64,000 nucleotides of DNA from an uncultured bacterium (lineage in GTDB: Bacteria > Armatimonadota > Abditibacteriia > Abditibacteriales > Abditibacteriaceae): contig CAWJLW010000006.1 of NCBI GenBank assembly GCA_963843795.1, positions 248,001 to 312,000 of the forward strand, given 5' to 3'. The position numbers and the translations under genes were made by a program. Of this stretch, positions 5,931-10,592 are shown piece by piece. The notes under the pieces are model-generated. The model was not told the origin of the DNA. It made no database searches and worked only from the letters and a program-made list of their open reading frames with translations. Each line of letters opens with the position of its first letter. Within the stretch, counting starts at the first letter, position 1.

Positions 5931-6776
5931 ATGCTATCTTCTGTGCGTCGTTCAGCTTTTTGTCTTGCAAGTCTCGCGCTGCTGACTTGCGTTTGCGGCG
6001 CGAACAATCGAATGTGGGCACAGAATGGTTCTTCCCAACTTCCTGAGTCAGCCAAGCCACCTAATGCTACGGACGCTTCCGCTACAGTTCAGCCCGATGT
6101 CGCGCCCATAGCGTCCGAGATTCCGCCCACTTACAGCGGATTTTACCAAACCACTTTTAACGTTTCTTTGCTCGGCAAGCCGCGACCTTCGTTGGGCCAT
6201 CGTTTGAACTTGTCTTACGTACCGAAATTCGGTGGTTCGTTTGATGCGCGCTTCGAGTATTTTGTCGATGGTTCCTACAACGCCGATCCCGTCGGAGTTC
6301 TCCGCAACAATATCAACGAACCCAAATTTGAAGCGCAACTGATGTATAACCGACCTTTAAATGAGCGATTTGGAATCACCGGCGGCGCGCTTCATCACCA
6401 CAATTTTCGTTTTCCTGATAATTACGTGTTAGCAGTTGGTGGATTGACTGCTGAAGCGCCGATTGGCAAAAATGTGACCTTTTCGGGCGCAGCGCTGCTG
6501 GAAAAGAAAAGTAGTGTGCGAGTTTTCTATAATCTTTCCGGCACTTTGGAATATCGCTTTGCGCCCAAGTGGAATACCCAATTCAGTTACGCGCGCCTCG
6601 AAAACGTCGGCCAGTTCGACCTGAAACCCACGCAGGTGGAAGAATACGAAATCGGCGTTAATCGGGAACTGAACCGCCAGCAATCGGTCGGCATTTCTTT
6701 CTTTCGCCACATCCAATTCAACGCGCCCAATGACCAATTCTCGTTTCTAAAATTCAAATACGGCGTCGGATTTTAA
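5931..6776 (+). CDS. Secreted protein, probable outer-membrane beta-barrel
   Basis: Signal-like N-terminus, amphipathic aromatic-rich strands, C-terminal Phe (KFKYGVGF). Confidence 0.6.
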   Translation: MLSSVRRSAFCLASLALLTCVCGANNRMWAQNGSSQLPESAKPPNATDASATVQPDVAPIASEIPPTYSGFYQTTFNVSLLGKPRPSLGHRLNLSYVPKFGGSFDARFEYFVDGSYNADPVGVLRNNINEPKFEAQLMYNRPLNERFGITGGALHHHNFRFPDNYVLAVGGLTAEAPIGKNVTFSGAALLEKKSSVRVFYNLSGTLEYRFAPKWNTQFSYARLENVGQFDLKPTQVEEYEIGVNRELNRQQSVGISFFRHIQFNAPNDQFSFLKFKYGVGF

Positions 6777-6807
6777 AACTAAATAAGCCAAGCTCGTTTA
6801 ATAGAAG

Positions 6808-6860
6808 AAAACAAAATAGAGGTGGCGCTTCTTTGAGAAGCGCCACCTCTATTTTGTTTT
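6808..6860. terminator. Bidirectional intrinsic terminator between convergent genes
   Basis: 25-bp stem aaaacaaaatagaggtggcgcttct-ttg-agaagcgccacctctattttgtttt. Confidence 0.85.
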
Positions 6861-9800
6861 TAACCGCAACCACTCGTCGTACCGCAATCGGGGCATTTGT
6901 AGCAAGCACCGGCGCGGATCATCATCGAGCCGCAATCGCTGCATGGCGGGGCGTCGCTTTGCACTTGCATCAATTGTTTCATCAGGTCGCCCGCGTGTTC
7001 GCCTTTGGCGGCGCGTTCGGGGGCGTGGTGGCCGTTTGTGGCGTGGCCATTGGTGCTGTGTCCATTGGCGCTGCCGTTGGAACTGGGGTTGGCTTTCGCC
7101 TGAAGCAGGCCGCGCGCGTGCGCGGTGACGACTTCAGGCGTCAGGCTTTTTTTGCTTCGCCACCTTTATCATCGTCTTTGGCATCCAAAAGCGATGGCTC
7201 GTGGGCGGGCGCGTTGTCGTCGCCGTTGGGCTGGAATTTGAGGTCGAACCAGCGGAAGATGTAATCCATCAAGCTCTTGGCAATCGGGATTTCGCGGTTG
7301 GTCGTGTAGCCGCTGGGTTCAAAGCGCGTGTGCATGAACTTATTGACCAGCACTTTCAAGGGCACGCCGTATTGCAGCGCCATCGAAATCGCGACCGCGA
7401 ACGAATCCATCAAGCCCGAAATCGTGCTGCCTTCCTTGTTCATCTTGATGAAAATTTCGCCCGGCGCGCCATCTTCAAACAAGCCGACGGTGAAATAACC
7501 TTCCTGACCGGCAATCGAAAACTTGTGCGTGATGGCCGCGCGCTCGTCCGGCAACTTGCGACGCAAAACGTGCGCGGCGGCTTTGGCGTCTGCCGCGTTT
7601 TGCGCTTTGGTCGCATCACTTGCCGTCGAAAGCGGCTGCGTGCGCTTGCTACCATCGCGGTAAATCGCGACCGCTTTCAAGCACTGTTTCCAACTTTCCA
7701 AATACGCGTCGAACACGTCTTGCACGCTGCAATCGGCGGGCAGGTTGACGGTTTTGGAAATCGCGCCCGAAAGGAACGGTTGCGCCGCGCCCATCATTTT
7801 GATGTGTCCCATATAATGAATCGAGCGCGTGCCGTTCATCGCTTTGAACGCGCAATCGAAAATCGACAAATCTTCGTCGCGCAAATGCGGCGCGCCTTCG
7901 ATGGTGTCGTTCTTGTCGATATAATCAACGATTTCTTGCGTCTGCTCGCCGCTGTAACCGATTTTTTGCAGAGCGGCGGGCACGGTCTGATTGACGATTT
8001 TCAGCAAGCCACCACCGACCAATTTCTTGTATTTCACCAGCGCGATGTCCGGTTCGATACCGGTCGTGTCGCAATCCATCATGAACGCGATGGTTCCAGT
8101 CGGAGCCAAAACTGTGGCCTGCGCATTCCGATAACCGTGCTTTTCGCCCAGCACCAGAGCTTCGTCCCACACGCGTTGAGCCGCTGCAAGTACTTGCGGC
8201 GGCACTTGCGAGCCACGAATATCGCCGACTGCATCGCGATGTTTGCGAATCACGCGCAGCATCGGTTCGCGGTTGGTTTCATAACCGTTGAATGGCCCGA
8301 TGTTCGCTGCGATACGCGCCGATTGCGCATAGGCCGCGCCAGTCATAATCGCGGTAATCGCGCCCGCGAGGCTGCGCCCTTCGTCCGAATCATACGCCGT
8401 TCCCTGCGCCATCAAAAGCGCGCCCAGGTTCGCGTAGCCCAAGCCCAGAGGACGATAATCTTCGCTGTTAATGGCGATTTTTTCGGTCGGGTAGCTGGCG
8501 TTGGAAACCAGAATTTCCTGCGCGGTGATGAAAGTTTCGCTGGCGTGTGTGAACGCTTCGGCGTCAAAGATGCCGTCGGCGTCGCGGTATTTCATCAAGT
8601 TCAAACTCGCCAGGTTGCAAGCGGTGTCGTCCAGAAAAACGAATTCCGAACACGGGTTGCTAGCGTAGATGCGATCGGTGTTGGCGCAGGTGTGCCAATC
8701 GTTGATCGTGGTGTCGTATTGCAAACCCGGGTCGCCGCAAATGTGCGTGCATTCGGCAATTTGCATCAGCAAATCTTTGGCGTTTTTGGTTTCAATCGGC
8801 TCGCCGGTCATCACGGCGCGCGTCGACCACGGCATGTTGTTTTCCGCCGCGCGCATAAACGCGTCGGTCACGCGCACGCTGTGGTTTGCGTTCTGAAAAT
8901 CGACCGAATCATACGCACCGCCGGGCACGTTAAAGCCACCGTTGTAACCGGCTTCGATTAACGCCCACGCTTTTTTTTCTTCATCGGCTTTGCACACGAT
9001 GAATTCGCTGATGTCGGGATGGTCGGCGTTCAAAATTACCATCTTGGCCGCGCGACGCGTCGTGCCGCCCGATTTAATTGCCCCTGCGAAAGCGTCCCAG
9101 CCACGCATGAACGAAACCGGGCCACTTGCGATGCCGCCTCCCGACAAATGTTCGCGGCTCGAACGAATGCGCCACAGGTTGGAACCCGCGCCGCTGCCGC
9201 CTTTAAACAAGCGCGCTTCGGTCGCCGCCAGTTCCATAATCGATTCCATGTCGTCGTAAACCGAGTTGATGAAGCACGCGCTGGCCTGTTGTTTCGCGCC
9301 TTTGACACCGATATTGAACCAAACCGGCGAATTGAAGCTGCCATATTGATGCAACAGCAAATATGCCAATTCATCGCGAAACGCTTTGGCGTCTTCTTCG
9401 GATGCGAAATAGCCGCCTTCAACGCCCCAACCCCAAATCGTATCGGCGACGCGGCCAATCACTTGACGTACGCTGTGTTCGCGTTGCGGCGAATCGAGCG
9501 GGCCGCGAAAGTATTTGCTGACCACAACGTTGGTGGCCAATTGGCTCCATGTCTTGGGAATTTCGCAGTTGGTCTGCTCGAAAACGGCTTTGCCATCTTC
9601 GCCCGAAATCGTTGCGGTGCGCGTTTCCCATTCGACGGTATCGAAAACGTCCTGATCGGCAGAAGTGAAGCGGCGCGGGAATTTGAGCGCCGTGCCTTTT
9701 TTGCGGCGCGTCGTGGCACGCGGCGTGTAGGACTTTAGCGCGCCTGCGCTGGCTTCGACGCGCACTTCGGAAATGGCGGCTTTGTCGGAAGCGAGAGCAT

Positions 9801-9864
9801 CGAGAATGGTTTCATCTGCGGTCTCGACAGTGGATGCGGCAGTGTCTGGTGCGTTCTGGCTCAT
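6860..9864 (-). CDS. nrdJ: Class II (adenosylcobalamin-dependent) ribonucleotide reductase; 0-frame stop at 7141, C-terminal zinc-ribbon domain in -1 frame to 6860
   Basis: FNSPVWFN, ASACFI, GGTTRRAAKM, ASNPCSE, CNLASLNL, LAPTGTI, GAISKTVN, TSCPD-like domain; -1 frame ends DAPPCSDCGSMMIRAGACYKCPDCGTTSGCG; ATG 9864 after AGGAG. Confidence 0.93.
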
Positions 9865-9915
9865 AATACGGTTCTCCTGAAATACGGACGGGACGAGGCG
9901 GATATTAAAGGTAAA

Positions 9916-9962
9916 GCACAAAATGTTGTGGTTAAGGTTGCGCGATGCTACAAGATTTTGCG
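9916..9962. promoter_or_regulatory. Tandem NrdR boxes upstream of nrdJ
   Basis: gcacaaaatgttgtgg (9916-9931) and gctacaagattttgcg (9947-9962) resemble the acaCwAtATaTwGtg consensus, starts 31 bp apart. Confidence 0.7.
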
Positions 9963-10113
9963 TTTTGCTGCGCGGTAGTTTTAAGTCAGGACGCCACCAA
10001 TTGCAAGATGTGAAGCGCGAAATTTCGGAGAAAATTTTCGTGGCAGAAGAAAAATGTGGCGGGCGGGCAGAGTTTTCCCCGATATGGAAAAAGTTGTCCC
10101 TGCGAAAACGAAA

Positions 10114-10150
10114 AAGCCGCAGCCGAAAGTTTGAATTTCGGCTGCGGCTT
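10114..10150 (-). terminator. Intrinsic terminator after the tRNA pair
   Basis: aagccgcagccgaaa...tttcggctgcggctt, U-run on the minus strand. Confidence 0.75.
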
Positions 10151-10156
10151 AATTTT

Positions 10157-10231
10157 TGGCTGGGGAACTAGGACTCGAACCTAGAATCGTCTGAACCAGA
10201 ATCAGATGCCTTACCATTTGGCCATTCCCCA
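10157..10231 (-). tRNA. tRNA-Gln(CTG)
   Basis: Minus strand TGGGGAATGGCCAAATGGTAAGGCATCTGATT-CTG-GTTCAGACGATTCTAGGTTCGAGTCCTAGTTCCCCAGCCA; cloverleaf, encoded CCA. Confidence 0.95.
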
Positions 10232-10278
10232 AAATCGTCCAACGCTTTTTAATTATAAAAAACGTCCGACAAATTACA

Positions 10279-10349
10279 AGGCCACGACCGGATTTGAACC
10301 GATGTACACGGTTTTGCAGACCGCTGCCTAACCACTCGGCCACGCGGCC
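10279..10349 (-). tRNA. tRNA-Cys(GCA), CCA not encoded
   Basis: Minus strand GGCCGCGTGGCCGAGTGGTTAGGCAGCGGTCT-GCA-AAACCGTGTACATCGGTTCAAATCCGGTCGTGGCCT. Confidence 0.95.
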
Positions 10350-10592
10350 ATTCTCACTCAATAACATGAAAAGGCTTTTCTATTTTATCGCTTTCACGCC
10401 CTCGCGTCAAGCTCAAATTTCGCGCAGCGAACACAGAGCAGAGATTTTTTCGAATTTGTATTCTGCAAGTACTTGCAAAACAAAGTTCTGTTTTATTTTT
10501 ATGAGTTATCGGTGTGTTCTCTGCACAAAACTCACAATCTGCTGGCACGAAAAGCGAAGCGATTATCGAAAATTTGCACAAAAAGGTGAGAA

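Follow-up and report, generated by a model that had tools for sequence, protein, structure and literature searches.

A putative dnaX-type -1 frameshift cassette at the end of nrdJ, the class II ribonucleotide reductase gene, in Abditibacteriaceae

Few chromosomal, non-mobile bacterial genes use -1 frameshifting productively, and the textbook case is dnaX, in which the Shine-Dalgarno (SD) sequence lies about 10 nt from the slippery heptamer. Excerpts of PMC5009743 describe the dnaX layout as a heptamer with an SD sequence on its 5' side, a stem-loop on its 3' side at a distance of typically 5-9 nt, and a stop codon directly after the shift site. The same excerpts note that tau is made by frameshifting in some bacteria, and that the roles in dnaX reverse by a single-nucleotide change when the efficiency of the shift is near 50% (PMC5009743). 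We analyzed the end of nrdJ, the gene for a class II B12-dependent ribonucleotide reductase (RNR), in a 64,000-nt stretch of DNA (the window) from an uncultured member of the Abditibacteriaceae (GenBank assembly GCA_963843795.1, contig CAWJLW010000006.1, positions 248,001 to 312,000 of the forward strand). A first-pass annotation made from the sequence alone had proposed a programmed -1 ribosomal frameshift at this gene end. The element is most likely a dnaX-type cassette for programmed ribosomal frameshifting (PRF) in a new gene family, with a polarity that appears to be reversed between lineages.

Two further groups of systems are close to this locus, and the articles on them are likewise cited from excerpts. 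The heptamer A_AAA_AAA is a recognised PRF motif (PMC3711429, PMC4066793), and among insertion sequences (IS) there is a proven A_AAA_AAA cluster with a stem-loop as stimulator (PMC4066793). For NrdJ, a C-terminus with six cysteines has been described that binds zinc, carries electrons to the active site and drives the formation of higher oligomers (PMC5704485). Such a tail can serve as the reductant for the active site of a different subunit (PMC5704485); electrons have been shown to pass between subunits (PMC5704485, PMC4520616), and some genomes encode one NrdJd with the cysteine-rich domain (CRD) and one without it (PMC5704485). Literature searches found no frameshifting in nrdJ or in any other RNR gene, nor was any found in the excerpted text of PMC3711429, PMC4066793 and PMC5009743, the supplementary tables of which could list it.

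The frame break at the end of nrdJ

The genome that holds the window (G000) belongs to a soil-type bacterium, and the names on its best protein matches put it in the family Abditibacteriaceae of the Abditibacteriota. Its assembly of 11 contigs, of which one has 3.6 Mb, totals 4.30 Mb with 53.6% G+C. In a search of this genome, which is 92% complete, nrdJ was the sole RNR gene found (PF02867 had one match), and the class III RNR family PF13597 had no match. The frame-0 open reading frame (ORF) of nrdJ lies on the minus strand at 7141..9864 and runs from an ATG at 9864 to a TGA at 7143-7141. It encodes 907 aa with the C-terminus ...GGEAKKA (the same protein as P0002), in which Pfam recognised the RNR barrel (PF02867, E = 8e-130), the class II N-terminal domain (PF08471) and TSCPD (PF12637). 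The 3' end of this frame reads GAT AAA GGT GGC GAA GCA AAA AAA GCC TGA. The seven A at 7153-7147 (7147..7153, minus strand) form the heptamer A_AAA_AAA in X_XXY_YYZ phase, GCA AAA AAA being 7155-7147, and the TGA (7141..7143) follows one codon past the heptamer. The first-pass annotation had reported the same gene end, phase and stop at these positions.

From the last A of the run (7147), the -1 frame continues for 95 codons without a stop until a TAA at 6862-6860 (6860..7147, minus strand; product P0001). Translation confirmed the earlier description of this frame as a His/Asn/Gly-rich linker followed by a Cys-rich tail. The tail ends in a six-Cys motif, DAPPCSDCGSMMIRAGACYKCPDCGTTSGCG, which is a C-terminal zinc ribbon of the form CSDCG...ACYKCPDCGTTSGCG at 6863..6943 (minus strand); the tail alone matched no Pfam model. 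The gene is therefore that of a class II NrdJ with a Cys-rich C-terminus, in which the RNR barrel, the class II N-terminal domain and TSCPD are in frame 0 and the six cysteines are in the -1 tail. The predicted products have 907 aa (frame 0) and 1001 aa (906 + 95, trans-frame), which agrees with the sizes of about 907 and about 1001 aa estimated previously. An intrinsic terminator with a 20-bp stem and a T-run (6812..6856, minus strand) lies directly after the stop codon of the tail. Because this terminator comes only after the tail stop, the tail should be on the nrdJ transcript.

The elements expected around a shift site were also present. The SD-like element AAAGGTGG is located at 7160..7167 (minus strand), 6 nt 5' of the heptamer, where the first-pass annotation had put it. 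The 3' end of the 16S rRNA of G000 is a canonical anti-SD; paired with it, the window from -18 to -4 relative to the heptamer gave -7.1 kcal/mol, within the top 2% of windows in nrdJ. A stem-loop at 7097..7140 (minus strand) begins 6 nt 3' of the heptamer and folds, as the first-pass annotation had described, into an outer and an inner stem, here of 10 bp and 6 bp. The 96-nt segment that contains this hairpin had a free energy of -35.8 kcal/mol (z = -2.47; 3 of 200 shuffles were equally stable), and a separate fold of a 75-nt segment was similar (z approximately -2.5). An Rfam cmscan of 6700-10400 at E <= 1 gave no match in the cassette; outside it there were two tRNAs and sub-threshold matches, most of which fell on the terminator hairpin at 6798-6868 (spurious microRNA matches) and one of which overlapped the tRNA at 10159-10230. 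Both tRNA-Lys(UUU) and tRNA-Lys(CUU) are present in G000. With both of them present, an A-site codon re-pairs better as AAA than as AAG, which fits the use of AAA here.

We consider it probable that ribosomes cross the frame break in nrdJ of G000 by a programmed -1 frameshift of the dnaX type at A_AAA_AAA. Two Lys-tRNAs would occupy AAA AAA while the stem-loop 6 nt downstream holds the ribosome, and AAAGGTGG on the upstream side would probably help the slip. A fraction of ribosomes would then slip back one base into the -1 frame and make the 1001-aa enzyme with the six-Cys tail, and the other ribosomes would stop at the TGA one codon later and release the 907-aa enzyme without a tail. The cassette would, in this way, set the ratio of the two NrdJ isoforms.

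Related contigs and the frames under constraint

Relatives were searched in 40 genomes, and both the end of the core and the tail were found in 26 loci. In all 26 loci, which are from more distant relatives, the tail was in the same frame as the core, and only G000 differed; the -1-frame tail of G000 was homologous to the in-frame tails of all 26. By itself, this result would suggest an error or a mutation of recent date. The break could be an assembly or sequencing error that hides a true run of eight A, or could reflect phase variation of the A-run at the DNA level. Homopolymers are error-prone, G000 is in 11 contigs, and the assembly contains a 289-nt A run elsewhere. A count of seven versus eight A had been recommended with the original annotation as a check. 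Public sequencing runs were searched, and none contained more than 0.16 of the sampled words, with no RNA run among them. The error test was carried out on Logan contigs from public runs of relatives, X1, X2, X3 and X4, from four studies (n = 5 contigs, as X3 has two).

The contigs of all 4 runs span the site and are approximately 92-95% identical to the window in DNA sequence. For X2, one contig of 3,964 nt spans 6857-7594, with gaps totaling 27 nt that are all in the linker at 7056-7094. The net differences in length from core to tail were -27 for X2, +9 for X1, -6 for X4 and -12 for X3, all of which are multiples of 3. When 7098-7205 was aligned, the A-run was free of insertions and deletions in all 5 contigs, and the sole substitution within 7132-7167 was 7158 C>G. 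This interval includes the 5' arm of the stem as well as the SD-like element, the heptamer and the TGA, and the latter three were unchanged. Seven A and the same offset were thus present in 5 contigs from 4 independent runs. Across the genome, 7 of the 58 in-phase A_AAA_AAA sites were at ORF ends; the 6 besides nrdJ were ordinary stops with no continuing frame, and hence there is no sign of systematic homopolymer errors in G000. No length variant with six or eight A was seen at the site in 16 sequences, and the flip of frame between relatives, described below, maps to the spacer and not to the A-run. As judged from these sequences, the frame break is a conserved feature of the DNA and not a product of assembly; we regard error or phase variation as extremely improbable.

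Two observations on A-runs in G000 are recorded here in their own right. One of the in-phase sites, C6:2561257, is an overlap of the xseA stop and the xseB start on seven A, with the ATG lying shortly before the run in the +1 register; it was considered as a frameshift site and rejected as an ordinary gene overlap. Open frames of at least 250 codons hold the 58 in-phase A_AAA_AAA sites, whereas approximately 148 are expected on the crude assumption that the 860 AAA-AAA dicodons follow an A-ending codon (17.2% of codons) independently; the deficit suggests selection against A_AAA_AAA in this genome.

The substitutions in X2 were used to determine which frame is read on each side of the heptamer. 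Of the 59 differences between X2 and the window, 38 were listed, and each was classified in both frames. Of the 20 changes at or above 7168, 16 were synonymous when read in frame 0 and 3 when read in frame -1. In contrast, reading the 18 changes at or below 7131 in frame -1 left 12 of them synonymous, and reading them in frame 0 left 3. Because the frame in which changes are synonymous switches there, these data indicate that the coding frame switches at the heptamer and that the tail is under purifying selection.

This constraint bears on the possibility that a fixed frameshift mutation has left a decaying gene end, from which only the tail-less enzyme is made and in which the tail is a relic. 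Such decay would be consistent with the 26 in-frame loci and with a tree of the last 330 aa of the NrdJ core, which was poorly resolved and placed G000 apart from the other carriers of the cassette on a long terminal branch (0.38 versus a median of 0.047). However, the tail is intact, with six cysteines and no stop over 95 codons; change in the relatives that share the break is dominated by synonymous substitutions, and the break persists over approximately 5-8% DNA divergence in 4 runs. In addition, nrdJ is the only RNR gene found, and the tail domain is reported, in the excerpted PMC5704485, to be crucial for turnover. Decay is very improbable on this evidence.

A second possibility is a split gene, in which the tail is translated separately from an internal start and acts in trans like NrdJb of Pseudomonas aeruginosa. 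A genetically separate tail domain does exist in NrdJa+b (PMC5704485), and gene callers have called stand-alone tail ORFs in other assemblies (P0122 and P0123, from ENA). In G000, the -1 frame has stops upstream of the heptamer at 7171-7169 and 7168-7166 (TAA), and no ATG, GTG or TTG was found in it from 7165 to 6983. The first ATG is at 6982, and the nearest CTG is 16 nt from the SD-like element. Between 7010 and 7055, 10 of the 12 listed X2 changes were synonymous in the -1 frame. Change of the synonymous type thus runs up to 7055, 5' of the first ATG, which indicates translation of the linker before that codon and argues against an independent start. The carriers of the cassette that have the tail in frame also keep it with no need of a restart. 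We consider a split gene quite improbable.

The cassette among relatives and its polarity

The linker was read in 30 loci, comprising 24 of 27 genomes of the family, 2 JGI metagenome loci and 4 genomes related at the class or phylum level. An in-phase run of seven A was present at the same linker position in 11 of the 30, namely G000, 8 genomes of a genus termed g2 here and the 2 JGI loci. One more g2 genome had CCC AAA AAA (six A) at this position, for a total of 12 carriers. The other 18 loci had no such run, among them 3 g2 genomes and G001, which GTDB places in the same genus as G000 but whose NrdJ is only 79% identical to that of G000. The first-pass annotation had asked for conservation of the site in homologues; most homologues are in frame, and a defined subset keeps the heptamer, the SD-like element and a covarying stem-loop.

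Lys-Lys was encoded by AAA AAA in all 12 carriers. The Lys codons alone are weak evidence, since AAA makes up 72.5% of the Lys codons in G000. Better evidence is the codon before them, which was GCA, CCA or TCA, for three different amino acids, and ended in A in 11 of 12 carriers, compared with 17% (17.2%) of all codons in G000. The affinity of the -18 to -4 window for the anti-SD was in the top 0-2% within the carrier's own gene in 10 of 12 carriers and at 8-9.5% in the 2 JGI loci, in letters that also encode Glu and Gly; the distance from the SD-like element to the heptamer was 6-10 nt across carriers.

In minimum free energy folds, a hairpin was located 6-8 nt past the heptamer in 12 of 12 carriers (6 nt in G000). 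Two types of stem occupy this position. The type II stem, found in 5 g2 genomes, has invariant GC-only arms and variable loops. The type I stem, which G000 shares with 4 g2 genomes and the 2 JGI loci, covaries and is homologous between lineages. Covariation was counted on an alignment (A3) of 7 related sequences cut to start at the stem: 90.6% of cells were paired, and 4 of 10 pairs had changed on both sides. The covariation score was 0.224 versus 0.104 in shuffles, and 0 of 500 shuffles reached 0.224, in a small sample of related sequences and with shuffles that ignore kinship. Sliding the partner strand by 1-3 columns reduced pairing to 12-40%. In X1, X2 and X4, the substitution 7131 A>G replaced a U-G pair by C-G, and the remaining hairpin was unchanged in X2.

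A -1 stop was found 1-4 codons past the heptamer in all 11 carriers that have the tail in frame 0. A slip in these carriers would therefore yield a tail-less enzyme. The earlier suggestion that two isoforms are made from one gene, with and without the tail, gains support from this arrangement, as the same slip that would add the tail in G000 would remove it in the relatives. One of the carriers is 95% identical to a cultured species, Abditibacterium utsteinense, and has seven A and the hairpin; the NrdJ of A. utsteinense has DAKKAS at the site. The cassette is likely to be present in A. utsteinense as well, and this species, being cultured, would offer a possible bench test of the idea.

The difference between G000 and the in-frame relatives with a type I stem is a net single base in the spacer between heptamer and stem, and the A-run is still seven. 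Owing to this one-base difference, the same TGA comes to lie in frame 0 in G000, and the tail is moved to frame -1. By this comparison, the polarity of the cassette would have flipped in the G000 lineage, so that the frame-0 and slip products are swapped relative to the in-frame carriers. A second flipped lineage probably exists. The JGI protein P0004 (925 aa) ends in ...GESKKA at the homologous site, without a tail, and is 91% identical over 314 aa to the protein of the in-frame locus L033 and 81% identical to G000. The stand-alone tail ORFs P0122 and P0123 are further candidates, known like P0004 as proteins. A scan of metagenomes with the tail gave L033 and L034, both in frame, as the nearest of the loci recovered, and the contig of P0004 was not among these loci. 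From pairwise identities, and not from a tree, we infer at least two changes of polarity.

These comparisons also bear on transcriptional slippage, in which RNA polymerase would add an A on the run of seven, so that some mRNAs carry eight A and give the full-length enzyme in G000 and a truncated enzyme in the in-frame relatives. Slippage would yield the same two proteins, and homopolymeric A-runs are a known substrate for it. Moreover, enterobacteria have fewer AAAAAAA than expected in every frame, for which slippage is a possible reason (excerpts of PMC4066793). However, the A-run was exactly seven in 16 of 16 sequences and in both polarities. A covarying hairpin 6-8 nt downstream and an anti-SD match upstream would be stimulators of ribosomes, and we know of no role for either once the polymerase sits on the run. 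Programmed transcriptional realignment has been described for A-runs with n > 7 (T-runs > 8) in the excerpted text of PMC3711429, whereas n = 7 here. Slippage of the polymerase is unlikely on these grounds.

Other features of the locus and of the genome were recorded. The terminator at 6812-6856 is bidirectional, a perfect hairpin with a T-run on each strand, and is common to nrdJ and a convergent ORF of 281 aa (5931-6776, plus strand). Directly upstream of nrdJ are 2 tRNA genes on the minus strand, at 10160-10231 and 10279-10349 (65 and 61 bits in Rfam), and between these and nrdJ there was no cobalamin riboswitch or other Rfam element at E <= 1. Many nrdJ genes of the Abditibacteriaceae contain one or more inteins, with Pfam intein and homing-endonuclease domains, as in loci L029 (G016), L030/L089 (G007), L017 (G013) and L023 (G022) and in proteins P0007, P0008, P0025 and others. 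The open frames of such genes reach 1345-2562 aa; the G000 copy is free of inteins. The 289-nt A run of G000 is at C6:529518-529806, outside the window, and runs of 14 and 18 A lie near each other at C3:36039-36079; these long runs are probably an assembly artefact or a poly-A-bearing insertion. The dnaX gene of G000 itself (C6, minus strand, near 2,643,100) has an in-phase A_AAA_AAG late in its open frame of 672 codons, at codon ~562. Past this heptamer there are a -1 frame of 20 codons and a predicted structure. The position is atypical for tau/gamma frameshifting, which made dnaX uninformative as a positive control.

Weight of the evidence and comparison with known systems

Several points weigh against a programmed ribosomal frameshift in nrdJ. 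The cassette is absent from 14 of the 24 readable genomes of the family, including G001, the sole same-genus genome among them. Inheritance could explain part of the conservation of the heptamer, given the kinship of the carriers and the preference for AAA among Lys codons. The SD-like element doubles as code for Glu/Gly-rich residues of the linker. The 75-nt hairpin segments were more stable than all but at most 3 of 200 shuffles in only 5 of 12 carriers, with z from -4.9 to +0.06. The check on the count of seven A was made on contigs of relatives of G000, and the second flipped lineage is known from a protein alone. Finally, excerpts of the literature on E. coli describe A_AAA_AAA as less shift-prone than A_AAA_AAG (PMC5009743) and report 10% for a cassette of seven A (PMC3711429).

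With these points considered, a programmed -1 ribosomal frameshift, with the ribosome and not the polymerase slipping, would still account best for the cassette, its frames and its relatives. The reversal of polarity implies that frameshifting would be of substantial efficiency. A more far-reaching proposal, which we offer as possible and hold to be doubtful, is that a dnaX-like -1 shift of approximately 50% efficiency is ancestral in nrdJ of part of the Abditibacteriaceae. Tail-bearing and tail-less subunits would then be made at a ratio near 1:1 and form mixed oligomers, in which one zinc-ribbon tail may re-reduce several active sites. A ratio near 1:1 could also have let the polarity flip at least twice without harm, in the clade of G000 and in the lineage of P0004, which is 91% identical to its nearest in-frame relative.

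If a frameshift of this kind operates in nrdJ, it adds an essential enzyme of DNA precursor synthesis to the few chromosomal genes named at the outset, and the supply of the redox tail would be set at the level of decoding. A ratio of isoforms set in this way would give a mixture of tail-bearing and tail-less enzymes from one gene, and the reversal of polarity would be a natural experiment on it. There is also a consequence for annotation, as pipelines call a "complete" nrdJ of 907 aa in such genomes and drop, or call separately, the tail that is needed for turnover.

The nrdJ cassette can be compared with three described systems. Like the cassettes of IS3/IS911 (A_AAA_AAA or A_AAA_AAG), it would yield a fusion protein when ribosomes shift by -1 shortly before the first frame ends, with a stem-loop and a putative SD as stimulators. 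Unlike those cassettes, it is located in a chromosomal housekeeping gene that is not mobile and encodes no transposase. The likeness to NrdJa+NrdJb of Pseudomonas aeruginosa, and to genomes with two NrdJd, is that the core and the Cys-rich part are uncoupled at the gene level. In two-NrdJd genomes, tail-bearing and tail-less cores coexist, and the same is predicted for G000. Unlike NrdJa+NrdJb, however, G000 has one gene and one mRNA with no canonical second start before 6982, only the last 95 residues are split off, and the break is after the TSCPD domain and not before it.

The comparison with dnaX (tau/gamma) is the closest. The nrdJ cassette differs in that its gene encodes a class II RNR and not a clamp-loader subunit, its heptamer is A_AAA_AAA and not A_AAA_AAG, its stem is of unrelated sequence and belongs to no Rfam family, and its SD-like element is closer to the heptamer (6-10 nt). 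Like dnaX, it has a Lys-Lys heptamer with a putative SD-like element on the 5' side and a stem-loop 5-9 nt away on the 3' side. In one of the frames a stop follows the shift site at once, so that a short product would be made beside a long one with one or more extra C-terminal domains. As in dnaX, the polarity of the arrangement appears to reverse between lineages.

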